From contig NC_054743.1 in the NCBI RefSeq assembly GCF_018143015.1, forward strand, positions 35,339,243 through 35,403,242: a stretch of 64,000 nucleotides of DNA, in the 5' to 3' direction. Made by a program: the position numbers and the translations under genes. The notes under the pieces were generated by a model. The model saw only the letters and a list, made by a program, of their open reading frames with translations. It searched no databases and was not told the DNA's origin. Below, one piece after another: positions 693 through 56,918 of the stretch; within the stretch, counting starts at the first letter, position 1, and every line of letters starts with the position of its first letter. Origin of the DNA: Lytechinus variegatus (lineage: Eukaryota).

Positions 693-1160
693 GTGCTGAG
701 CAATTATTTGAGAAGCAACCGCTCTCCAGGAATCCCGCCCATCACAATCTCAACCTCCATCAGTTTGCAATCATCCGAGAAGCAACCTCAATCCAGGAAT
801 CCCGCCCATCACAATCTCAACCTTCATCAGTTTGCAATCATCCGAGAAGCAACCTCAATCCAGGAATCCCGCCCATCACAATCTCAACCTTCATTAGTGT
901 GCAATCATCGAGAAGCAACCTCAATCCAGGAATCCCGCCCATCACAATCTCAACCTTCATCAGTTTGCAATCATCCGAGAAGCAACCTCAATCCAGGAAT
1001 CCCGCCCATCACAATCTCAACCTTCATCAGTTTGCAATCATCCGAGAAGCAACCTCAATCCAGGAATCCCGCCCATCACAATCTCAACCTCCATCAGTTC
1101 GCAATCATCCGAGAAGCAACCTCAATCCAGGAATCTGTTCGTGCGATCTCCAGATGTTGA
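693..1160. repeat. minisatellite, about 60-bp unit x about 7.5 (gcaatcatccgagaagcaacctcaatccaggaatcccgcccatcacaatctcaaccttcatcagttt)
   Basis: Direct tandem copies with a 60-bp period visible in the sequence. The overlapping ORFs 693..1160 and 899..1213 are repeat artefacts. Confidence 0.9.
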
Positions 1161-1600
1161 ATGTAGTGGGTAAGCTGGTTGAGGTTGAGATGATCGGTGG
1201 GCTTGGTAGATGATAGTTTCTGGGCACAACACACGACCAGAGACACCATCAACACTCTCAGAAGTTTGCCACCAATCTTCCCTCCTATGAAACAAAGAAA
1301 TCAAGACACAGAGGTGTAAAGCAAAACTAAAAGAGGGCCTTTCTCATATTCATTACTTTTATTATCACATATGTAATTTCATGCTTCATTTATTGATTCA
1401 ACCATGTTTACAAACAGATAAAAAAGTTACAAAAATATTCAAAGAACAATACATCAGAAAATAATACAAAGTAAAAATTGTTAATGGGGAATAAGAGCTT
1501 GTTGGTGGGGCTACCTACATGTAACAAATATGAGTAGCAAAGACAAGTATTATAAACATGTATTCTCTCAATTATCTTATGTAATTGAATTTTGCCACAT

Positions 1601-2010
1601 AAGACAACACAATAGCCACCACCAACACCATCACTACCACCACCGCCACCACTACCATTAACTACTACTAATCCTACTACTGCTACTAAAACAACACAAT
1701 AGCCATCACCAACACCATCACTATCACCACCACCGCTACCATTAACTACTACTAATCCTACTACTGCTACTAAAACAACACAATAGCCATTACCAACACC
1801 ATCACTACCACCACCACCACCACCATTAACTACTACTAATCCTACTACTGCTACTAAACCAATACAATAGCCATTACCAACACCATCACTACCACCACCA
1901 CCACCACCATTAACTACTACTAATCCTACTACTGCTACTAAACCAATACAATAGCCATCACCAACACCAACACCATCACAACCATTAACTACTACTAGTC
2001 CTACTACTGC
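1601..2010. repeat. minisatellite, about 81-87-bp unit x 5 (aacacaatagccat.accaacaccatcactaccaccacc...ctactactgctactaaa)
   Basis: Tandem periodicity by eye. It is followed by a G11 homopolymer at 2041-2051. Confidence 0.85.
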
Positions 2011-2189
2011 TGCTACTCAGTAGTGATCTAGTTATTTGCTACAAGGGGGGGGGGGTGTGGACAAGTTGATTTGACCCAACAATGATGAGCTGTGTCATAA
2101 TGCATCCTATTCCACTACTGTTCTGCTTGCATGATCCCACACTCCTATTCAAATTATTTGCAGGGAACCAGTAGTTGGGGTTTAAACGC

Positions 2190-19507: not shown

Positions 19508-22500
19508 TTTAGTTAAAACTAATTCATTTGAATAAATAGTATCTCCGTCATGTCTCTGGGTAGTCTTCACAGAACGTCTGGTGCTCTGAAACCTCTCTTC
19601 TTCATAGCTTAGCAAAGAATCTCGAAGTTGTGTCTCGGCGATGGAGTGACTGGCAAATCCTAAGCCCTGTGATGCTACCGGGGCATTGGCATGTGTCCAG
19701 TTGTCTGCCCTTGACCGATCGCTGAAACTAAATCCTTGAGACACTCGCGGAACATCACTATGTGTCCGAGCCCTTCCTTCGGACTGACCACCGAAACTGA
19801 ATCCATTTGATACCCTTACAGCACTTTGAGCTTGATCATTTGCTTCATGCTGACTGCTGGAAACAGATCCTTGAGATTCATCAAGACTGGACACCCCTGA
19901 CACTCCCGAGACAGCACTATGCATCCGAGCTATGGCACAAGTTGAACTTCCAAAAAATAACCCTATTGATGGTCTATCAAATCTAGGCATTTGTGACTGA
20001 CTACCAAAACTGAACCCTTGCGACTGGACATTAAAAGGGGACCCTTGTGGCTGGCTACCAAAACCAATTCCTTTGGATGGACCACCAAAAAGTGGCACTT
20101 GTGACTGGCCACTGAAACCAGTTCCTTGTGATGGGCTACTAAAAGGGGACTCTTGTGGCTGATTATCAAACCCAGACTTTTGTAACTGACCACCAAAAAG
20201 TGACCCTTGTGACTGGCCACTAAAAGGGGACCCTTGTAACTGGCTACCAAAACCAATTCCTTTTGATGGACCACCAAAAAGTGGCACTTGTGACTGGCCA
20301 CTGAAACCAGTTCCTTGTGACGGGCTACTAAAAGGGGACTCTTGGGGCTGATTATCAAACCCAGACTTTTGTAACTGACCACCAAAAAGTGACCCTTGTG
20401 TCTGACCACCAAAAAGGGACCCTTGTGACTGGTTACCAAAAAGTGACCCTTGTGATTGGCTACTAAAAGGGGACCCTTGTGATTGATCCCTGAAACCAGT
20501 TCCTTGTGACTGACCACCAAAACTGAACCTATTAGACTGACCATCAAATCCAGACTTTTGTGACTGAGCACCAAAAAGTGACCCGTGTGACTGACCACCT
20601 AAATCTGTTCCTTGTGACTGATCACCGAAACTAAATTCGTTTGGCGTACCAACAGAGCTAGAAGCTGATTTTTGTGACAGAAAACAAAAAGGTGACCCTT
20701 GTGACTGACCACCAAAAATTTGAGCAGTACGTTGTTGAGCTGATTCAGATTTCTTGAAGGACATCCTGTCAGATTGTGAAGAAGATCCAAATAGACCCAC
20801 TGTGGGCTTAGACACTCTTCCCGACATCTGGAAAGGCAAGCTCGTGGGTGGCAGTTCTGTACTTCCATGATTGTTTGTAGACTGCTCTTGTGATGCAGGC
20901 CCATTGACATCAGGAATTTCAAGCTCGCTTCCTTGTCTTGGGCAGAGGGCATTGTTGGCTTGATGATTTGGATGTAGCAATGACATATCTGATGATTCCA
21001 TTTCCTGTGCAGATTTGCTTGGGGATTCCGGGTATGTTTTGGATACTTCCTCTGGTTGCTCTAATCTCTCAGGAGCATTCTGATCCTGTCCACACCAATT
21101 ATCGGGTTGAAAAGGCGTCTCAGTAACTCTCGAATGGTGTGCATGTGTTCCAGTTCCAAGTTTCAGGCTCTGAGGTTTTCCAGTGGAATCACTCACAGAT
21201 TTGTCTAGCATACCTTGGAGATGTTGACGTCCATTTGGATACAATTCTTGACTGAAATCTTGAGCTGTGGTATCCATGGCAACATTAAACCTTTGGAATT
21301 GAGGCCTTTGTTGTAGACTTCCACTATCTCTGGACTCACGGTCAAGCTTCTTTGTCTCACGTTTCTTGCTTTGAGTAGTATCAAGATCCCCACCTTTAAA
21401 GACCTTTTCTCTGCCAATTTCATTTTTACTATCAAGAAAAATGACACCTCTTTCACATTCACTTCTCTCTTCCGCTAAATCATCATCAACATCCACTCCA
21501 AACCCACAGAATTCCACATCTATAGATGGTGCTAACATTGTACTACCTTGATGAATATGATCTTTTTCATTGTTACTAACTTTTTGCAGTTGGGAGGCAG
21601 GTTCAACACCCGAACCCAATGAACAAGGAAACACTTGTACTGACTGCATGGCCTGTTGAACAAGTGAAGGATGAGAAGAATCAAAATCTCGAGAAACTTG
21701 AGCATATGCAGGAGAAGCTGGAGAATATGCAGGAGAGGTTGGAGAATATGCTAAATATATTGGAGAAGTTGGTGGAGAAGTTGGTGAATATGCAGAAGGG
21801 GAGCGCTGCTGCATGGCTTTTCCAAATGTTTGTTTTTGTGTAGCAAGTTTCTGTGACAGAACTGAGCTCCCATGCATTAACGAGTCAGCCCTAATATCTA
21901 GTAGAGACAGATTACTTTCATATGTACTGGAAGCTTTATCAGATATTCTCTCCAAACCTCCAGCAAGGTCCTGGTATTCCGAAGTTCCTCTTGGTTTGGG
22001 ACTACCTTTCCCACCCTTGTTTAAACCAATGGATTTTACAAGATCTGTATGTCCAGAGTTCCGTGGAGGTGGTGCTGGCATTGATTGAGGAAGAGCTCTA
22101 GCAGCTCGGCGTCGAGTTGGAGGTGGAGCACCAATGGCTTCACTCAGAGGTGGAGGTGGCGGATGAGGAGCACTAGCAGCTTTAAGTGACGGAGGAGGAA
22201 GAACAGCACCATACACAGGAGCACCAAACATGGCACCATCATGTGAATGTGGAGCCGAAGCAGCAGGAAGACCACTACCAGTAGGTGGTGGAGGAGCAGG
22301 TGCAGCAAAACGGCCACGAGAAGGAGGCGGAAGAGGAGGAGCATGAAAGCCACTTAGGGGAGGAGGAGGTGGAGGAGCAGCGAAGACACCAGGAGGCGGT
22401 GGAGGAGGATCACAAACACCACCAGTAAGAGGAGCAGCAGCAGGACGGCCATCAGAAGGAGTCAGAGCATAAAACCCACTTTGAGGAGGTGGAGGAGCAG

Positions 22501-22801
22501 CAAAAACACCAGGAGGTGGTGGAGGTGGAGCACCTGGAGCAAAAATGCCATCAGGAGGAGGTGGGGGAACACCAGCACCCCTACCTCCACCACGACCACC
22601 AATAGCAGATGGAGGACGAGCACCACCAATAGAACAATATCTTCTTAAAGGCATTCCTAGAACTCCTTTTTTTCCTGCCCATGCGGATGATATCTGTCGG
22701 GGATGTCCTTTTCTCATTATGGATGCTTTATAAAGAACCTCATCAGCAGAGAGAGCTTTTGCTTCTAACATTGTCTCCATGATTGCACCATGTTGTTGTT
22801 G
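19508..22801 (-). CDS. PARP4: giant 3294-nt low-complexity coding exon (1098 codons): proline-rich blocks, CTD-like YSPTSPA heptads and about 20 FG-type SQGxxFGGQ repeats; probably the PARP4 C-terminal disordered region
   Basis: Uninterrupted ORF (the 1176-aa ORF 19382..22912). Its 5' end is a strong acceptor tttgttctttgtacag|CAA, in phase 0, which matches exon 24321-24376. Its 3' end is a consensus donor AAA|gtaagt at 19508. Human PARP4 also has a long Pro-rich C-terminal region after the vWA and ITIH-like part. Assignment to the same gene rests on strand, order and phase only. Confidence 0.55.
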
Positions 22802-32699: not shown

Positions 32700-33250
32700 A
32701 TGACCTAATCTTTTACATGTACATGAGCCTTCCCTTAACGTATATGACCTAACCTTTATATATGTGAGGCTTCCCTTACTGTATATGACTTGAACTTATA
32801 TGTGAGCCTTCCCTTACTGTATATGATCTAACCTGATATGTGAGCCTTCCCTTACTGTATATGACCAAACTTTCTAGTGGATACTGTGTATGACCAAATC
32901 TATTACCACTATCTTACATGTACATGAGCATTGTATATACAAACCTTATACATGAGGCTTCCCTTACTGGACATGACCTAACCTTATATGTGAGCCTTCC
33001 CTTACTGTATATGACTTGAACTTATATGTGAGCCTTCCCTTACTGGATATGACTTGAACTTATATGTGAGCCTTCCCTTACTGTATATGACCAAACCTTA
33101 TATGTGAGCCTTCCCTTACTGTATATGACCGAACATTATATGTGAGTCTTGCCTTGCTGTATATGACCTAACATTATATGTGAGTCTTGCCTTACTATAT
33201 ATGACCTAACATTATATGTGAGTCTTGCCTTACTGTAGATGACCAAATCT
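32700..33250. repeat. minisatellite, about 41-bp unit x about 13 (tatatgtgagccttcccttactgtatatgacc.aac.t), in a PARP4 intron
   Basis: Tandem periodicity by eye. Confidence 0.85.
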
Positions 33251-33779
33251 TACACCTGGGCCTACCATTAACTGGATTTTATTATTCATTTATTTATTGG
33301 TAAATGCACATATACTGACCAGCAGCAGGACTGAATGGGTCAATTGACAATATCAATACAAAGTTTAAAAAACCAAAACAAACAAATACAGTAAATATAA
33401 CTTTTTGCTTTGGTTTGGATTCACTATCCAATAAATAAAGTTGAACGCAAAAACTAAAAAAAATAGAAAAAAACTTTTTGCTTAATGATTTAATGTCATT
33501 AATAATTATGGAAATCAATTTACATGGAGATATATGCATTTCTTGAATAAAAAAAGAATATATAAGAGAAAGAAAAGTGAGGGAGCAGGGGGGATAGAAG
33601 TAGAAACGTATGTATTGCAGAATGAGAAACTTGGGACGGGGAAATATGGGGAGGTCAGAGACTAAAGAGTATTTGTATATGACCTTATGACTAAATCTTT
33701 AAGTGGTCGACCCTCACGCTTCTCATAATTATGAATGTTGGTGATGTATGTATTATGAAATGCACATATTGCAACATAC

Positions 33780-35879: not shown

Positions 35880-36830
35880 ATTGTAACTTTTATAATGCTT
35901 AACCATATCGAAATAATTATTGGATTAAATTGATTTAAAAATAAAGGCATGATATACCTGAACAAAAGCCAAAAAAGAGAAAGAATTCATCATAAGAAAT
36001 GTCAACCCCAAAATGCATCAAAAGTTAAAAACTTAATCAAACAAATTTCAACCTTGAGCAAACAGGATAATCAAACTTCAGGAATATAAACACTTAGAAA
36101 ATTTAAAGTTAAAGATTTGTAAGTCTTTAACTTCCATAATGCTTTAAGCTTTGGAAATGATTATTGGATGAAATTGAATTGAATATAAAAGCATGATATA
36201 TCTCAACATAAGCCCCAAAAAGATAAAGAATACAACAGGATCGTACGAAATGTCAACCCAAAAACACATCACAAATTAATCGAACAAATTTCAACCATAA
36301 ACATACAGGATAATCAAACTTCCTAGAAACACAAAATTAAAAGTTGAAAACTTGTACGTCTTTAACTTTCATAATGCTTTAAGCTTTGGAAATAATTATT
36401 GGATTAAATTGAATTGAATATAAAAGCATGATACACCTGAACACAAGCAAAAAAAAGAGAAAGAATACAACAGGATCGTATAAGATATGTCAACCCCAAA
36501 ACACATCAAAAGCTTACAAATTAATTCAACAAATTTCAACCATAAGCATACAGGATAATCAAACTTCCTAGAAACACTTACAAAATTTAAAATTAAAGAT
36601 TTGTAAGTCTTTAACTTTCATAATGCTTTAATTATTGGATTCAATTGATTTAAATATAGTATAAAGGCATGATATATCTCAACATAAGCCAAAAATGAGA
36701 AAGAATACAACAGGATCGTAAGAAATGTCAACCCCAAAACACATCAATCAAAAGTTCACAAATGAACCCGACAAATTTCAACCATAAGCATACAGGATAA
36801 TCAAACTTCCTAGAAACACTTTCAAATATC
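35880..36830. repeat. satellite, about 240-bp unit x 4
   Basis: The marker ataaaagcatgatata recurs at 35941, 36183, 36421 and 36660. Confidence 0.8.
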
Positions 36831-39359: not shown

Positions 39360-41300
39360 TTTGTCATGCTTCTTTCACAAGATGACTTGTGTAAAACATC
39401 ATGTAAAAGGCTGTGTAAAATGTAGATAAAATATTGTGTAAAAAAGTGGGTAAACATTGTGTAAAATAAGGAGTTGCCAATTTAAAGATTGAGTAATGAC
39501 TTGTGTAAAACAATATGTAAACCAGTGAGTAAAACACTGAATCACATATTGTGTACAACAGTGAGTAGAACATTGTGTACAGCAGTGTGTAAAATATTGG
39601 GTAAATACTGTGTAAAACTTTGTGTAAAACAATGAATAAAGCACTGTATAACAGTTGATAAATCACTGAGAAAAACATTGTGTAAACAGTGTGTAAAACA
39701 GTGTAAACGTAGTGATTAAAATTTGAATAAAACTGTGTGGTAAGAAGTGCGTAAAACATTACAGTTACGGTGTAAAATGAGGAATTGCCAATTTGAAGAT
39801 TGACTTTCTGGGGCTTCTTCATCCATCAGATAGGCTCCGTGCCTCTTACTGATTGCTCCCTTGCATTCCTCATGAGCTTGTTCTTCCTCCTTGTACGATG
39901 TGCTTGAAGTTGAAGACGACTTGTGTAAAATTTGTTAATTATTGTGTGAAAAATTTAATCAAAACAGTGGGTAAAACTTTCATGTGCAGAACAGTATAGG
40001 ATAAAAACGTTGTATAAAACGTCGTGCACAGCATTGGGTAAAATGAGGAATTGCCAAATTGAAGTTTGAGTAATACCTTGTGTAAAACAGTGTATAAATT
40101 GTGCATAAATCATCATATAAAAAGAGTGAGCAAAACTGTATGCAAAACATAGTGTAAAGCTGTGTGCAAATTATGTGAAACAGTGTGTGAAAATTAGGAA
40201 TTGCCAATTTAAAGACTGAGTAATGACTTGGGTAAAACAATGTATAAAACTGTGCATAAAGCATCATGTAAAAAATAGTGAGTATAACTGTGTGCAAAAC
40301 ATTGCATGAAACAGTGTGTAAAACATTGTGTAAAACATTTATGTGACAAAATGAGGAGATGCCAATTTGAAGATCGTTTCGGACTCACTGGTGCTTCTTC
40401 ATCCATGAGATAGGCTCCGTGTCCCTTACTGATGGCTTCCTTGTATTCCTTATGAGCCTGTTCTATGTGCTTTTATCCAATTTAGCCTCAAAACATTATT
40501 GTGTGTTATGAATTGTCAAATGAGTTGCCAATTTGAAGTTTGAGTAACGACTTGTGTACAATGTGTAAATCATTGTGCAAAAAAATGATAAAACAGTGGG
40601 TAAACCTTGCGTAAATCAGTGTAGGATAAAACTAGAATGTAAAACACAGCACTGAGTAAAATGAGGAATTGCCAATTTGAAGATTGATTAATGACTTGTG
40701 TAAAACTGTGTATATAACTGTGCATAAAGCATAATGTCAAAATAGTAAGTATAACTGTGTGCAAAACATTGCCTGAAACGGTGGGTAAAAGATTGAGTTA
40801 AACATGTGACACAATGAGATGCCAATTTGAAGATCGACTGACTGGTGCTTCATCATCCATCAGATAGGCTCTGTGCCTCTTACTGATTGCTCCCTTGTAT
40901 TCCTTATGAGCCTGTTCTTCCTCCTTATCTCTTATCTCCTATGAATGCCTCAAAACCTTGTTGTGTGTTATGAGTTGTCAAATGAATAGCCAAGTTGAAG
41001 TTTGAGTAACGACTTGTGTACAATGTGTAAATCATTGTGCAAAAAAATTATAAAACAGTGGGTAAAACCCTGTGTAAATCAGTGTAGGATAAAAACTAGA
41101 ATGTAAAACACAGCATTGAGTAAAATGAGGAATTGCCAATTTGAAGATTGAGTAATGACTTGTGTAAAACTGTGTATAAAAGTATATATAAAGCATCATG
41201 TCAAAAAACAGCAAGTAAAACTGTGTGCAAAACATTGTGAGAAAAATTGTGTAAAACAGTGTGACACAATGAGGAGATGCCAATTTGAAGATCGACTTAC
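39360..41300. repeat. higher-order tandem array (about 460-bp unit of three sub-repeats of about 150 bp, gccaatttgaag plus tgtgtaaaac-like motifs); one sub-repeat per unit is a copy of the 3' end of the VIT exon plus donor
   Basis: The exon-end copy cttcttcatccat(g/c)agatagg...ccttatgagcctgttc recurs at 39806, 40388, 40843 and, in the real exon, 41297. Confidence 0.8.
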
Positions 41301-41519
41301 TGGTGCTTCTTCATCCATGAGATATGCTCCATGCCCCTTACTGATTGCTTCCTTGTATTCCTTATGAGCCTGTTCTTTCTCCTTGACCGTACCCACTATG
41401 TGCTTGTCTCCTATGAATGCCTCGAACCCACACACGGCGGCACTGTCTTCCAGGGGGAATACATACTTGGCTTCGATGGACTCCCGGTTCACGTTGTCAT
41501 ACTCCTGGAAGATGACGAC
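41301..41519 (-). CDS. PARP4: VIT-domain exon (VVIFQEYDNVNRESIEAKYVFPLEDSAAVCGFEAFIGDKHIVGTVKEKEQAHKEYKEAISKGHGAYLMDEEAP)
   Basis: Acceptor tacctctag| and donor CCA|gtaagt, 219 nt, phase 0 to 0. It nearly matches human PARP4 AKYIFPLDDKAAVCGFEAFINGKHIVGEIKEKEEAQQEYLEAVTQGHGAYLM. Confidence 0.85.
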
Positions 41520-45449: not shown

Positions 45450-45810
45450 TAAAAAGAAGAGATACATGTATGTGGTCGGTTAGATTAGAGATTTATTAAC
45501 ATCTGGTTTGAAATTGGTTAAGATCTGGCTGATATTCAAGGACCTAATGACATCTGCCCAAGGATTCCTCACATATCATCAGAAACCAACTATTACTCAA
45601 ATTGCTTTGGACAGAGTAACATACACTGATGCTAAAACAAGAGAGATATAAGATTAGTTAAGATCAGGTAAGAGGTTGGTTTTGATCTTGGTTATATTCC
45701 ATGACCTTATGATATCTGCCTAAAGAAGCCTCACATATCATCAGAAAACAACCATTACTCAAGGTGTTCTGGACAGAGCAACATGCATTGGTGCTAAATT
45801 AAGAGATACA
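45450..45810. repeat. two degenerate tandem copies (about 180 bp each) of the 5' half of catalytic exon 45259-45445 plus its upstream intron
   Basis: The copies read SNLSNSWFLMICEESLGRCH... with stop codons. Confidence 0.75.
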
Positions 45811-48625: not shown

Positions 48626-48781
48626 CTTACCCCGTCAAGCTGTCTTGGATCTGTTTTGAAATCTGCTCATACTCTGCCGATTCTGATGTTAGGAGTTCCA
48701 TATGACAGCGGAGAGTACGATACTTGGCCTCTGTACTCCCTCGCATAGACCAATCAGTGGCCTCACAGACGCTGTGCACAT
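48621..48781 (-). CDS. PARP4: PARP4-like exon, helical to catalytic junction (LLSDVHSVCEATDWSMRGSTEAKYRTLRCHMELLTSESAEYEQISKQIQDSLTG)
   Basis: Acceptor tgtgtttttcag| and donor GGG|gtaagg, 161 nt, phase 0 to 2. It resembles human PARP4 LAKYRALRCKIEHVEQNTEEFLRVRKEVLQ. Confidence 0.75.
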
Positions 48782-49110
48782 CACTAAGCAACTGAAAACA
48801 CAGTAAAAAACATTAGACTTCTCTGTCACTGTAACATCAAATACTATCCGGAAATGACTTCTTTACGACAAATTCATCATTATGCCCAGTTGTTATAAAA
48901 TTTGCTGGACAAGTTAATTTCTAGACAAGCTTCAGATGCTGTGAACATCGCTAAGCAACTGAAAACACAGTAAACAACATGGCATTTCTCAGTCATTGCA
49001 CCATCAAATGATTTTTTTTCCAGTTAAAACTTGAAAACAGTAGTGCTTATTTTGTTGAAATCGGATTTGACTATGGTGATTTTGATAATAAAATTAAGAA
49101 ACTTAACTAA

Positions 49111-49612: not shown

Positions 49613-51149
49613 GTCTGGTGGATTTAATGGCAGCTGGGCATAATAACAAATTTGGCCTAAAGTATATGTTTTAATATTCTGAACATGACATGAATGACTT
49701 TTTTTCTTGGATTTTTACTGCTTTTTTCGTTATTAATACTCAGCTGATTTTCAATCTACAACCTCTGGATACAAGGAATTCAAATTCTTTATATGGAGCA
49801 TTATCTGTGATAATTCTTGACAAGAACTCAAGAAAGGAGATTAAGGAAATGGCTTGCCATAGCCTACGCATGTTGTTTCATGCTAACTAAAACATTCCGG
49901 TATGACAGCCCATTCAGAAATACTGTGACAACCACTCCAGAATGAAGTAAAGTCTGGTTTCACTTTCACGTACTTGCCAAGTCTTCACACAGATTACTAC
50001 TCTCTTTAAGGACAAATCCACCCCAACAAAAACTTGATTTGAATAAAAAGAGAAAAAAACTCAACAAGCAATAACACTGAAAATTTCATCAAAATCGGAT
50101 GTGAAACAAGAAAGCTATGACATTTTAAAGTTTCACTTCATTTCACAAAACAGTTATATGCACATCTCGTTCGGTATGCAAATGAGGGAACTGATGACAT
50201 CACTCACTCACTATTTCTTTGTATTTTACTATATGAAATATTTTGATTTTCTCGTCATTGTCATGTGAAATGAAGTTTCATTCCTCCCTGAACACATGGA
50301 ATTCCATTATTTTAACATTTTGTGCTTCAGGATAGGAGGTGCTTATCATCAAATTCGTAACTATTAAAATATTTTATAATTCAAACAATAAAAAACAAAA
50401 AAATAGTGAGTGACATCATCGACTCTCTCATTTAGATGTAACCGGCTCATTCATATAACTATTTTGTTAAAAATTAGCAAAAATTTGAAATGTCATAACT
50501 TTCTTATTTTACATCCGATTTTGATGAAATTTTCAGCATTGTGCTTGTCTGATTTTTCTCTATTGATTCAAATCAACATTTTTCTGAAGGTGGACTTGAC
50601 CTTTAACTATCTCTTTCTTGCCTCTCGATTCCTACTCAATCTCTTTCATTTTCATTTCTCTTCAATCAAATAGTCCTTCACAGGTTTATTCATGAGGTGA
50701 ACCCTATTAAGCATTGTCAAAGCTTCATGTACAAAGATCACCTAGTCAAACATAAATATCTGCTGATCATAAATCTTGTTCAACACTGGGTGATTGGTAA
50801 CAGCTGTTACAGTCTTACGCACCTGGATGGTGTCAAGTTCCCCAATGAAAACTGATGACCATTGCCTATTAAAAGCTTTTTATTACTTAAGTACACTGTC
50901 ACATCCTTCCATGCAAGCCTTGCGTGTGTCTTGTGGGTAACCATTTATGCTACTCGCAGGTCGCCTGCAATGACAGTATCCGGCGCGGATCTAACACGCA
51001 GTTGCCTAAGGAAGCGCACGCAAGTCTGATTTGGGCGCAAAAAAGTTTTGAACACGCTCAAAACTCTATTGTGCGTGAGTTGCGAGCAATCATCCGTAAC
51101 ATATCGGCGAGGCTTGCACGGAACAATGTGACAGGTCCTTTATAACCAG

Positions 51150-51355
51150 TGTATCGGCTCAGTTGGTAGAGCGTCTGTCTCACAACCGGGTGGTCGGGGG
51201 CTCAAACCCCGGCCGCGTCAGATCAAATGACGTTCAAAGATGGGAGTTGCTGCTTCCCTGTTTGTCGTTCAATGATTAAAGGGATAGAGCCTCGTCGATC
51301 TGCCGTTGCACAGCAACTTCCAGGCCCACAATCAATTGGGCAAAGAAAATTTTCG
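51150..51355 (+). mobile_element. SINE family 2 copy
   Basis: Head ggctcagttggtagagcgtctgtctcacaaccgggtggtcgggggctcaaacccc. Confidence 0.8.
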
Positions 51356-51462
51356 AGGTGTTTCATTTCATGTCTATTTCCAACAATAAAATATGGATTT
51401 TTATCTTACATCTTTTTATTCATTCTTAAATATGCATATATTATGAGAGCTTGAATACTAAC

Positions 51463-51633
51463 CTGACAGAGTCCTTGCTCTCTTGTGATATCCTGTTTAG
51501 TCTTCAAAATAGGCTGCTTCTTATGCGGAATCTTATCATAGTACTCATGACTCAGCTTGAGTAGAACGGCTTGACTTCTATTTGCGTCTAATCCTTCTTT
51601 GATCTGCAGGAGAATGCATTCGCCTTTCTCAAC
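51463..51633 (-). CDS. PARP4: PARP4-like helical-domain exon (VEKGECILLQIKEGLDANRSQAVLLKLSHEYYDKIPHKKQPILKTKQDITREQGLCQ)
   Basis: Acceptor ctaccctccag| and donor CAG|gttagt, 171 nt, phase 0 to 0. It matches human PARP4 KAEGILLLVKAALKNGETAEQLQKMMTEFYRLIPHKG and PARP1 [24 protein letters not shown]. Confidence 0.75.
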
Positions 51634-51879
51634 CTGGAGGGTAGCAAATTCGAAAAGGAAAATAATCATTAAAAGATATAATTGAATAAATACTAGTAAC
51701 AAATAACACAATATATTTTTCTTAGTATAGCACATTTTTTTTTCTTTCTTTTCTTTTAATCCCAAGTACAAACCATGAAGAGAACACATTGCGCTTAGAA
51801 ACACCCGTAGTAAGCGCCTTGTAAATGTTATGTATTATTATCTGCCGACTGTGACAACCAAGAAATGGGAACAACATCC

Positions 51880-52330
51880 TATTCAATATTTCAATATTTC
51901 TGAGAATGTTTCACAGAAATGCATGTAGGAACACAAATCCAGACATTGGCCTTGGCATATTTATGTTCGAACTCAAGAATGACAATTTACCAGATGCCTT
52001 TGCGCCATTATTTCAACGCAATTTCATTGTACATTCCCATTCAACTAGACAAGCTAATCATTACCATCTCCCACAAGCCCGAACCGTTTTTGCTAATAGC
52101 ACCTTTACTACAACAGGACCCAAATTCTGGAACAGCCTTAATAAGGAACTGGTTGAAAGCCCATCTCTCAATTGTTTCAAACGCAAGCTCAAGTTATACC
52201 TCTTGGAGAGGTACAATGCTGGATCGTACTGATGACTGCAATTAATTAATTAATTTTGTCTATTCTTTCTCTTTATATCCCTTGACCCCCCCCCCCCCCC
52301 CGTCTTTTTGGTCGTTTTCCAATTTCTTTT
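51880..52330 (+). mobile_element. 3' tail fragment of a non-LTR retrotransposon
   Basis: ORF 51906..52232 ends ...FTTTGPKFWNSLNKELVESPSLNCFKRKLKLYLLERY, the LINE ORF2 tail motif. It is followed by a C-rich 3' UTR. Confidence 0.5.
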
Positions 52331-52590
52331 TATTTTGCTATTTTTATTTCTATTCGGTTTTTTTCTATTTCATCTTTTTCTGGTAACCTGATGCCATTCG
52401 ATACCATTTGTGTAAAACAATCTACGTAATAAATATGTATTCCGTTTCCACATTTGTTCGCTCAAAGTAACAACTTATATTTTTCCCCCATTGGGAGCCT
52501 AATTTTTTACAAGCTCTGCTTTTTATTTAGGTTTCCTCACTTTTTTTACATTTGTAGTGTACCTTATGCTTAAAAAAAAAACTTATGTTA

Positions 52591-53458
52591 GATAGGGGAA
52601 GGCGGGGTAAGTTGAGCATAGGGCAAGTTGAGCCACCAGCCCCAGGCCAATAATGAATGAGTCAGACATTGTGGTGGTGACATGTATTGATGACCCATAG
52701 CATAACCCCTAACCCCACCACATTGTTTCCAACTTTGAAACAAAAAGTAGTTTTTTAGAGGGAAAAATATGAATTTCAGCCAAAAAAGTAAAAAAGAGTG
52801 TGAAATAGATAAGTGCTTTATAAACACACACATCTTTAAATATAATAAAGACATGATAACAACATTATTAGTCCAGGTATGGATCTTCATTTTTGTCATA
52901 GTCTTTTATATGATGGATGCATAATAAATGTGTGGATACAAAATTATCGCACTAAGTTCGGACTGGGGTAAGTTGAGCCAAACAGCATGGGGCAAGTTGA
53001 GCCATGGTAATTCCTATGGTAATGTATCTTAAAAAACAAACAAACCATAAAAATCGATTGAAATGCAGGCTGAAAGGAGCAAATTTACATGACTGCTCCT
53101 TTCCTTTTACAGGATGTTAGTATTTATAGAGAATTAGCAGGTGAAAAGACTTTAAACAAAAAATTGACATGCTGGTTCTCCCCCATACATTTTGTACATA
53201 ATTTTTGTGGCTCAACTTACCCCAGAAGGTGGCTCAAACTTACCCCATATATGGGGCAAGTTGAGCCATTTGACATCGTTTTTTTCAAAGGTCACAATGA
53301 CTTTCAGTGTGGGGATAGAAAGTTATATATAGGTGGAAAATATTTCAGAAGAATTGAATTTCAAGGGAAGGTACTTATTTCGACAAGATTATTAATCATA
53401 TCAATTCTAACATGCAAAAAGCAAAAACTGTCACAACTTACCCCGCCTTCCCCTACTT
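52591..53458. mobile_element. foldback DNA element of about 870 bp with TIR aggggaaggcggggtaagttg and a reiterated internal motif ggggcaagttgagcca
   Basis: 52591-52612 is the reverse complement of 53437-53458. The motif and its complement recur at least 6 times inside. Confidence 0.6.
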
Positions 53459-53954
53459 AATTTTATCATTGATACACTATGTTTATGACCACATTTGTTA
53501 CGTATATTATGATATTTGTTTTAAAAGTGGAATCAATAAATGAATGAATGAAATGAATGAAACTTAACCTTTTTTTTTAATAACAAAATATTGGTACCCC
53601 CTGCCTCCTTTCAACTAACACTTGTAAGAATACACATGAAGATCTATGGGGGGGGGGGGAGTGCGGGGGAGGGGGGATTTAAAAAGGATGCAAGTTGTGG
53701 ACAGTGCGACAGCTATCCACAATCAGAATTTCATGAGTTTAAAGTCATGCCATTTTTAAATTTTGGCAACCCTTCCCCCCCAAAAAAAAAAGACTAACAG
53801 AAAGAGAAATAAAATAATGGAACTTTCCTAAGAAAGGCCAGGTGTAAATAAACCATGGGCTGCCAATGTACCTCCTCCCTACCCCCCCCCCTCCCATCCG
53901 TTTTTTCCCCATATATGTCCAGGCTATCCCTTGTAATGTCTTTTTCAAAGGGAA

Positions 53955-54165
53955 TGAGAATATGACGTATTGCTGACCTCGTCACATGACACCCTATCCA
54001 AAGGGCATGAGAGTATATCATTAAGATGACCTTTTGCTTACCTGGTCACGCGACACCCTATCCATGGGACATGAGAGTATGTCATTAAGATGACCTTTTG
54101 CTTACCTGGTCACGTGACACCCTATCCATGGGACATGAGAGTATGTCATTGAGATGACCTATGGC
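53955..54165. repeat. 61-bp tandem repeat x about 3.4, made of copies of the 3' end plus donor of exon 54106-54246
   Basis: The unit catgtcccatggatagggtgtcacgtgaccaggtaagcaaaaggtcatcttaatgacatactct is repeated. Two copies retain CCAG|gtaagc. Confidence 0.85.
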
Positions 54166-54246
54166 TTCCATCCATATCTGCTCCACAAGGGCTACTAAAT
54201 CCGATGAAAGCTTCTCACCAGCCAAATAACCCGCATCAAAGGAATC
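54106..54246 (-). CDS. PARP4: PARP4-like exon, start of the PARP alpha-helical regulatory domain (DSFDAGYLAGEKLSSDLVALVEQIWMEAIGHLNDILSCPMDRVSRDQ)
   Basis: Acceptor ttttttatgatttag| and donor CAG|gtaagc. It matches human PARP4 SQEVSDLVEMIWAEALGHLEHMLLKPVNRISLND closely. Its 3' end plus donor is tandemly triplicated downstream (53955-54165). Confidence 0.7.
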
Positions 54247-54835
54247 CTAAATCATAAAAAAAGAACAATAATGAAATATAATCAAATCAAACAACAATCG
54301 TCTTTTTGAAGTTGAAAGATTGTAGCCACCAAACCTCAACAATTTTACAAACTTACAAAATTAAATCAATTTGATGAAAATTGTCATATGCTTTGACAGC
54401 TCAGAAATGAATGAATTGAATGAATGAATGAATTTATTATCCAATGCAATGATAATACCAATTTTACAAGTTTACAGACAATCAGTTATGAATACATAGA
54501 AAAGTAAGGATAATAAGAACCAGAAAATACATGAATGCTAGTCAAGTCTGGCCCCTTCTAGTCTAGATAGAAAGAAATTTGTTTCTTAACTTAATTGTTC
54601 AGAATGAACAATAGTGAGTCTACTGAATATACTCTGTAATATAAATAAACAATGACTACCAGTACTTAACAATTTAACAAAAGTTAACAGTATTTACATA
54701 TGAAAGATATATACATGTATATGATAACAAAAATACCGTATACATGATAACAAAATTCATTTTTCCAACAGATGTTCAACATTCATGAAAAAAAAATCCA
54801 TGTCCAATTTGGCATCATGGTGCTACATGTACATG

Positions 54836-55105
54836 TGGAGTGTCGTGGCCCAGTGGATTAGTCTCCGGACTTTGTAACAGAGGGTTGTGGGTTCTAATCT
54901 CAGCCATGACATAGTTTTCCTTCAGCAAGGAATTTATCTACAGTGCACTTGACCCAGGTGAGGTAAATGGGTACTAGCAGGAAGTAATTCCTCAATAAGC
55001 TGTGTGAACCTGAATAGGTAACCTAGCTTAACCAGGGTAATAATAATAGATGGGCCCGCTGGGAGAACAGTTTTCGGAAATGAAGTGGCTACCCTGGGTA
55101 AATAT
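54836..55105 (+). mobile_element. SINE family 1 copy
   Basis: Head tcgtggcccagtggattagtctccggactttgtaacagagggttgtgggttctaatctcagcc plus the core. Confidence 0.8.
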
Positions 55106-55377
55106 ACCGTTAATACTATCATTTACAATGCTACATGGACAAAACATTATTCATAATTCATAACCCATAATGAAATGTACTGTACTGTAGATAGTTGCCA
55201 GAAGCAAGATTTGGTGGTCAATCAATCCGTTTTCATGCTCATGATAACTCTAGAAACCATGAAACATATCAACTAAAAGCTTGTCTCATGTATGCTTGTA
55301 GACAAAACGAAAATCTGATTGCCATAATTTTTTGCATCATGTGAGAAAGTCGAGCAAACAACAGTTGTGACACTAAC

Positions 55378-55539
55378 CTTTCTAAATGTCGGAGATCCAA
55401 TCCACCTAGAAATCATCTTCTTACACCGTTTCATCTTCCAGGGCGGCTTGATACGTTGCTCATATAACTGACGGTAGATATCAACAGCGGCTTGGCTTGT
55501 CTTCAAGTATCGACACTCCCTTACGCCACTCTCTTCATC
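55378..55539 (-). CDS. PARP4: PARP4-like exon, end of the WGR-like region (DEESGVRECRYLKTSQAAVDIYRQLYEQRIKPPWKMKRCKKMISRWIGSPTFRK)
   Basis: Acceptor cttctatttgatag| and donor AAG|gttagt, phase 0 to 0. It resembles the PARP1 WGR end ([24 protein letters not shown]) and human PARP4 QFAIKKTSEDASEYFENYIEELKKQGF. Confidence 0.6.
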
Positions 55540-56918
55540 CTATCAAATAGAAGAGTGAATACATCACAATAATAATAACAACAACAATAACAACAACATT
55601 GATGATGATGATAATAATGATAATAATAACAATAAAAATAATAATGATAATAACACTAATGATAATAACAATAATAACAACAATAATATTAATATCATGT
55701 AAAGTACATAATGCCTTGTCATCTAATGCCTCTATGTGCTTCCAAAGGGACTTTGGATATATTTGCAGAGCTGCCAACCTGAACAAGAACATTTCAGTAT
55801 TTTCAAGGCTGAAAATCAGTATTTTGGTGAGGAAATTAGTATTTTCACAGGAATACCATAGGACAACACATAAACTGAAGCTTAAAAAATCAGTATTTTG
55901 CATGAAACCATTAGCATTCTTCTCTATTTTCAGTACTAAATACGGAAAATCAGTACTACTTGGCAGCTCTGTATTTGGAGTTGCATTTGATTAAACTTTT
56001 TCATCCTCTTTCTTTCCTATTTTCATTAGGTGGGTATGAATGAACAATAAGACTGTAGCAGTCAAGGGGTTAAGAAGAGTAAATGAAGTACCCACATGGA
56101 ACATTCACCATGTACAGTGGTAAATGCAAATCACTTGAACATACCAGGGGACTGTTTCATGAAAATGTTCTGCATCGACAAGTTGTCATTTTCTGACAAT
56201 CACCATAGCAACCGTTATACACATGTGCTCCTAAGCCAATCAACAGGAAGGATAGTTGTTAATTACATGGCAACTAGTTAATAACAAATGTTTATGAAAC
56301 CACCTCCTAGACCTTGCCTTACACAGAGTTGTGATTGATTTGAATCAATCACACCTTAGGGATTTCTCTCAAATGTACACTAAAAAGATACATGTAGGAG
56401 TTGAAATCACTTGCAAAATTGCGATTGATCTGAATTTATTAGCGTGACTTAAGTCCTGCTTAGAGCTGATGCACACATGCAACACACAATGTTGCTTCAT
56501 GCATAGCAGCATGCATCTCCTTAGCTTGATATGATCAATGCGGTGAGCCTTTGAAACCAAATATAACTGTCCGTTTAAGTGAAACTCTAAGTCACATTTA
56601 ACTTTTGTGAAACATCCCCCCCCCCGGTGTTATTGATTAATACACATGAGCGCATTCTCTTAGCATGATTTGACGTAAGCCCGAATGCCTTTAATTCTGC
56701 ATCAGGACTGTTCTGCATGTAACTGGCAATTTAAGTGCAACTCTAAAGGGATATTGCAACAAAATATTTGCTATCAATTACAAATTTCGGTTGCAAATTT
56801 GCAAGTGATAGATCAATTGAAAATAAAGCAAATCAATTTATTCTTCTTCACGCAAGAAGAGTTATCAATAGTAAATTTGCAATTAAATCTTTGTGAGACA
56901 CCCCCCTGGTGTAATTAC

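Follow-up and report, generated by a model that had tools for sequence, protein, structure and literature searches.

A 64-bp minisatellite spans an exon-intron boundary of a PARP4-like gene in Lytechinus variegatus and reiterates its 5' splice site

Results

We analysed a 64,000-nucleotide stretch of the Lytechinus variegatus genome (NCBI RefSeq assembly GCF_018143015.1, contig NC_054743.1, positions 35,339,243 to 35,403,242), which is referred to here as the window and whose first letter is position 1. The minus strand of this window carries an orthologue of PARP4 (vault PARP); we assign it so because of a gapless alignment to human PARP4, the Pfam domains that were found and the colinear order of the exons. 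When the exon that carries the array described below (exon N, Table 1) is joined at its first donor to exons N+1 and N+2, the resulting peptide matches residues 258-399 of human PARP4 without a gap (8sx1; 11jf/9bw6; E=3e-21), human PARP4 being its best match among solved structures. At the donor 1 junction, VSRDQ/VEKGECILL is aligned opposite human ISLND-VSKAEGILL (a slash marks a splice junction throughout). The Pfam domain PARP_reg was found on the same spliced peptide (E=4e-11), and exon N codes for part of the PARP4 regulatory helical domain. BRCT was found on upstream open reading frames at about 60.5 and 59.3 kb, and the PARP catalytic, VIT and VWA_3 domains were found on exons further down the minus strand. 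The domain order is BRCT - PARP regulatory - PARP catalytic - VIT - VWA, all on one strand and with colinear exon matches, and the host PARP4 gene is apparently intact. A human PARP4 sequence served solely as a guide for locating exons, and the identity of the gene rests on the PDB and Pfam matches. In a collection of 5.8 billion proteins, the closest sequences were distant PARP relatives only, with at most 51% identity, and two DNA scans of metagenome contigs for the array locus, exact or degenerate, gave 0 matches.

Two further observations concern other open frames. On the minus strand, at 19975-20632 and 21650-22600, there is a long open frame of 27-nt (9-aa), FG-rich repeats of the type GQSQGSLFG, which is neighboured by a proline-rich open frame; the two frames probably represent the disordered C-terminal part of the PARP4-like protein. 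Antisense within the array-bearing intron, on the plus strand at 51906-52232, lies a 108-aa open reading frame, whose C-terminal motif ...FKRKLKLYLLERY may resemble the end of an ORF from a non-LTR retrotransposon.

Table 1. Coordinates of the array, its donors, the surrounding exons and other minisatellites in the window
Feature	Position	Strand	Description
Exon N, PARP4-like coding exon	54246-54106	minus	141 nt, phase 0-0, encodes DSFDAGYLAGEKLSSDLVALVEQIWMEAIGHLNDILSCPMDRVSRDQ; acceptor ttttatgatttag/GATTCC
Intron, exon N to N+1	51634-54105	minus	2472 nt
Exon N+1 (VEKGECILLQ...REQGLCQ)	51633-51463	minus	171 nt, phase 0-0; acceptor ccctccag/GTTGAG, donor CAG/gttagt
Whole minisatellite array	53946-54167	minus	three full units and a decayed partial fourth, ~3.5 copies, 222 nt
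Unit 1	54159-54096	minus	donor 1 with the final 54 nt of exon N (GHLNDILSCPMDRVSRDQ) and 10 intronic nt
Unit 2	54095-54032	minus	intronic copy, 62/64 identical to unit 1, intact putative decoy donor 2
Unit 3	54031-53968	minus	older intronic copy, 55/64 identical to units 1 and 2, weakened donor 3
Partial unit 4	53967-53946	minus	decayed CGTCAT..ATTCTCATTCCCTTTG, 11-nt deletion relative to unit 3; local alignment
Donor 1, CAG/GTAAGC	54100-54108	minus	after 54106; 8/9 consensus, U1 duplex -11.0 kcal/mol
Donor 2, CAG/GTAAGC	54036-54044	minus	after 54042; identical to donor 1 over -3 to +6, 64 nt deeper in the intron; 8/9 consensus, U1 duplex -11.0 kcal/mol
Donor 3, GAG/GTCAGC	53972-53980	minus	after 53978; C>G at -3, A>C at +3; 6/9 consensus, U1 duplex -5.5 kcal/mol
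In-frame TAA TGA	54087-54082	minus	met when exon N is read beyond donor 1
Minisatellite	710-1135		67 bp x 6.4
Minisatellite	1600-2015		84 bp x 5
Minisatellite	32724-33252		38 bp x 14
Minisatellite	35884-36819		235 bp x 3.9

The 3' end of exon N and its 5' splice site are repeated head to tail over the first ~160 nt of the following 2472-nt intron, and this repeat is real and far above chance. TRF reports an array at 53962-54167 with a period of 64, 3.2 copies, 90% matches, 0 indels and a score of 321, a repeat search finds three 81-nt copies spaced exactly 64 nt apart (53959-54167), and self-blastn gives a match of 145 nt at an offset of 64 with 89.7% identity (E=5e-47). As all three agree on the 64-nt spacing, the period is 64 and not 61 bp, as had been proposed in an earlier note on this DNA, which had correctly recognised a head-to-tail repeat of an exon end together with its donor. 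The same note had counted 3.4 copies at 53955-54165; the repeat itself is confirmed, with 3.2 copies according to TRF or ~3.5 if the decayed fourth is included, and its span runs from 53946 or 53959 to 54167. Instead of the suggested ~35 nt of exon and ~26 nt of intron, the unit is made up of 54 nt of exon and 10 nt of intron, or of 62 and 2 nt if a weak match between AAGCCATA and AAGCAAAA, which carries the array upstream to 54167, is counted. The strand had also been misjudged, and both the gene and the repeat read on the minus strand.

Matches to a 40-nt unit probe were confined to the array, with 0 matches in 100 shuffles, and neither this probe nor self-blastn found further copies of the unit in the window. 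It is therefore not a dispersed element, and a transposon or dispersed-repeat origin of the unit, which has 0 other copies in the window, was rejected. Tandem repeats are prone to misassembly and copy-number polymorphism, which raises the question whether the array or its copy number could be an artefact of assembly or an expansion confined to a rare haplotype, in which case the normal allele would have one copy. We consider this very unlikely, because the copies differ from each other in a graded way (2 differences between units 1 and 2, 9 between units 1 and 3, 9 between units 2 and 3, and a fourth copy bearing an indel), which is not expected from a misassembled single-copy site, and because the array, at 222 nt, is shorter than most reads.

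The divergence between the units increases from 3% to 14% and is then accompanied by indels, and this gradation points to successive duplication events, with the youngest copy adjoining the exon. The age of unit 2 is not readable from its two differences, because unequal exchange between diverged haplotypes would create such differences instantly. Both differences between units 1 and 2 are synonymous in the exon frame (2/2), a number too small to carry meaning, and between the units in general there is a mild excess of synonymous differences, since part of the divergence arose on the lineage of the functional exon. Eight changes are specific to unit 3, and two of them are located within the donor, which accounts for 9/64 positions (hypergeometric P=0.31). 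The changes are hence not concentrated in the donor, which fits neutral decay, and no sign of selection to disarm the decoy donors was seen among them.

The two donors reading CCAG/GTAAGC (after 54106 and 54042) and the third reading CGAG/GTCAGC (after 53978) are present as previously described. Donors 1 and 2 both match 8/9 consensus positions, and two sequence-competent donors thus face a single acceptor. Donor 1 is the productive 5' splice site and the sole donor giving the PARP4 reading frame, because it is the peptide spliced at donor 1 that aligns gaplessly to human PARP4. If exon N is instead read to donor 2 (+64 nt) or donor 3 (+128 nt), the peptide continues as ...RDQVSKRSS and ends at two consecutive stop codons, 7 codons (21-24 nt) past donor 1. 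With stops right after donor 1, the use of donor 2 or 3 would lead only to a truncated message or one prone to nonsense-mediated decay (NMD) and not to an alternative protein, and protein-diversifying alternative 5' splice sites are ruled out by the in-frame TAA TGA at 54087-54082. The proposal of tandem alternative 5' splice sites can be kept with regard to the reiterated decoy donors; functional alternative sites are not supported, and the stops follow within 21-24 nt in both the 64-nt and the 128-nt extension. Similarly, the argument that a downstream donor would shift the frame also holds for a unit of 64 nt, which is not a multiple of 3 either, but it is made moot by the stop codons 7 codons past donor 1.

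The intronic copies themselves have no coding potential: the peptide of unit 2 is the same as that of unit 1, yet it is read in a shifted frame and behind stop codons. Mutually exclusive exons were rejected, as the copies are without an acceptor and the unit length is 64 nt; what has been copied is not the whole 141-nt exon but 54-62 nt from its 3' end. The array resembles tandem exon duplications in being a local tandem duplication of coding sequence, but differs from them in that its unit length is not divisible by three and the copies lie in shifted frames and lack an acceptor. Read in the phase GTAAGC...CCAG, every unit starts with GTAAGC, ends with CCAG and contains a TTAAT branch-like motif, which is what one would look for if the intronic units left the transcript stepwise as 64-nt mini-introns in the style of recursive splicing, from donor 1 to the AG before donor 2; the same exon end and donor would be regenerated each time and the array would be harmless. 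This seems highly improbable to us, as the CAG is not preceded by a pyrimidine tract (GGGTGTCGCGTGACCAG), an earlier AG (GATAG) is located between the branch-like motif and the CAG, and an intron of 64 nt would be no longer than the minimum in many animals.

The palindrome GTCACGTGAC is located just 5' of donor 1, and its copies read GTCGCGTGAC in unit 2 (54045-54054) and GTCATGTGAC in unit 3 (53981-53990). In unit 1 (54109-54118), its 10 nt are perfectly palindromic around a CACGTG core, and one might speculate that the repeats form an intronic regulatory element acting at the DNA level, with E-box-type palindromes every 64 bp. Such a function is extremely improbable, since the palindrome is part of the coding sequence (V S R D) of exon N, its core is mutated in unit 2 (CGCGTG) and unit 3 (CATGTG), and chance alone would produce ~60 perfect 10-nt palindromes in 64 kb. 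The palindromes of units 1 and 2 pair with each other in the predicted RNA fold, which is not significant. An RNA structure masking the donors was also considered and rejected: the fold of the 321-nt pre-mRNA is no more stable than those of its shuffles (z=+0.14), and the helix predicted between the palindromes of units 1 and 2 (GUCACGUGAC) does not reach significance. An Rfam search over 51000-56000 gave sub-threshold chance matches only, none of them inside the array.

The window is rich in minisatellites: arrays with a period of at least 20 make up about 8% of its 64 kb (for examples, see Table 1). In the host PARP4 gene, splice sites have been reiterated by local duplication in at least three other places. 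At 39774-41385 (minus strand), the 3' end of the VIT-domain exon, its donor and the downstream intron are present four times with a period of ~460-575 (462 according to TRF, plus an older copy). The donors in this array are GTAAGT (the real one, after 41301), GTCAGT (40843), GTGAGT (40389, still plausible) and GAAAGT (39809), and by its sequence it would represent a second decoy-donor array with a larger period in the host gene. An acceptor (tttactgtgttttcag/) and the first 26 nt of the exon starting at ~48795 have been copied 167 nt upstream with 84% identity (48933-49009 versus 48766-48842, minus strand); this copy is a putative decoy 3' splice site, the use of which would lengthen the exon by 167 nt, shifting the frame. 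Furthermore, the intron before the PARP catalytic exon (the real exon being at 45447-45253) contains, at 45514-45806 (minus strand), this exon's acceptor together with about 125 nt of its sequence in two decayed copies, one with an open frame (45798-45673) and one with a stop (45636-45514). Given ~18 homology-supported exons with ~36 junctions and an array cover of ~8%, about three junctions are expected to be located in arrays by chance, and the exon N array is therefore to be seen as one case of a mutational habit general to this genome and not as a singular device. In the human genome, ties between tandem repeats and splicing have reportedly been documented genome-wide.

Discussion

Minisatellites whose first monomer lies across an exon-intron boundary, with the donor being reiterated in the intron, are a known class (Borensztajn et al., 2006, PMC1557585). 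By its structure, the exon N array belongs to this class, which has been described for human F7, IFI6, CBS, LMNB2 and PDGFA. Members have head-to-tail units of 10-100 bp, and the array studied here has a period of 64 with 3.2 copies and 90% matches, followed by a decayed fourth copy. Its first monomer (unit 1, 54159-54096) holds the authentic exon end at 54106 and the donor, and this donor is reiterated in the intronic monomers, being identical in donor 2 and decayed in donor 3. The earlier description of the locus as silent decoys or a polymorphic array matches the known class (PMC1557585).

The reported arrays resemble the one in PARP4 to different degrees. Intron 7 of F7 (IVS7) contains a polymorphic array of 5-9 copies of a 37-bp unit, and only the most upstream donor is used (PMC1557585). 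As in F7, the authentic donor in PARP4 is followed by reiterated pseudo-donors, and the use of most pseudo-sites would break the frame. Whereas the F7 unit is mostly intronic (33 nt, with 4 nt of exon), the PARP4 unit (64 bp) is almost entirely exonic (54-62 nt), and whereas the F7 donors are strictly identical and weak (UGG/gugggu), the PARP4 donors are strong (CAG/GTAAGC), with one decoy intact and 3.5 copies (PMC1557585). As summarised in the same article, the authentic donor alone is reported to be used in LMNB2 (100-bp unit) and in PDGFA intron 4 (81-bp unit), which is the behaviour that we propose for the PARP4 array; these units are of similar size and the arrays likewise begin at the exon-intron junction, but they have 10-18 copies compared with 3.5 in PARP4 and belong to other genes and organisms (PMC1557585). 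[quoted passage not shown] Here too, a unit made up of exon end and donor is reiterated in the intron as in PARP4, but the arrays comprise 15-26 copies compared with 3.5, and in PARP4 the use of a decoy would give a stop codon (PMC1557585).

We propose that the array is a neutral boundary minisatellite, of which the exonic copy is functional and the downstream donors are non-productive pseudo-sites, and we consider this the probable explanation. In this explanation, a 64-bp segment across the 3' end of exon N and its 5' splice site would have been tandemly duplicated several times, possibly by replication slippage or unequal exchange. Unit 1 within the exon is the ancestral, functional copy, and the intronic units derive from it and would be by-products. 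Unit 2 would be young, its donor still being identical to donor 1, unit 3 would be older, with a donor that has decayed at positions -3 and +3, and unit 4 would be nearly erased. The pseudo-donors may be ignored by the spliceosome or, if they are used, would lengthen the exon by 64 or 128 nt, running into TAA TGA, and the decoy-spliced messages would be expected to be cleared by NMD. Most likely, donor 1 would predominate, and the decoys would be silent or leak into NMD substrates. We judge the predominance of donor 1 to be likely because the gene is otherwise intact and, of the five human arrays described, three use the authentic site only. An adaptive role is not needed to explain the array.

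Studies on competing donors lead to a different expectation. In the globin C174C and adenovirus Ad1CC substrates, two strong donors at least 45 nt apart result in almost wholly intron-proximal splicing (Hodson et al., 2012, PMC3413131). These substrates have two strong, identical donors tens of nt apart and one acceptor, as has PARP4, but they are artificial, unlike the PARP4 locus (PMC3413131). Whereas the F7 rule predicts the use of donor 1, the intron-proximal rule (PMC3413131) predicts the use of donor 2, in which case most transcripts would be unproductive. One might therefore speculate that the array provides functional tandem alternative 5' splice sites, with a regulated choice of donor 2 tuning the PARP4 output via alternative splicing coupled to NMD (AS-NMD) or yielding a truncated BRCT/WGR-only protein, and with the copy number perhaps setting the level. 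Such a function is consistent with the sequence of donor 2, which shares its 9-mer and 62/64 nt of its context with donor 1, with in vitro and HeLa data in which the intron-proximal site is favoured when two strong sites are separated by 45 nt or more (PMC3413131), and with the use of the first pseudo-sites in IFI6 and CBS (PMC1557585). However, we regard it as unlikely: the copies decay with distance in a neutral-like manner and donor 3 is already crippled, the similar splice-site duplications in the gene and the ~8% of minisatellites point to a mutational by-product, and F7 as well as LMNB2 and PDGFA use the authentic site only (PMC1557585). That donor 2 is substantially used and that the array acts as a copy-number-dependent throttle on PARP4 output via stop-containing transcripts, which would make the locus a test case between two contradictory published rules, is in our view quite unlikely.

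Under the preferred explanation of a neutral boundary minisatellite with a productive donor 1, the locus carries a warning for genome annotation: of the two identical donors, the first marks the true end of the exon, and automated gene prediction could take the other and truncate PARP4. It also constitutes a natural experiment, in which identical strong donors are placed 64 nt apart in a near-identical context and the upstream one alone is productive. The 'most upstream' rule derived from F7 and the 'intron-proximal at >=45 nt' rule derived from the globin and adenovirus substrates clash here, and this is the main remaining interest of the locus. Finally, the clustering of splice-site duplications in one gene suggests that a minisatellite-prone genome keeps making decoy splice sites, which then decay.
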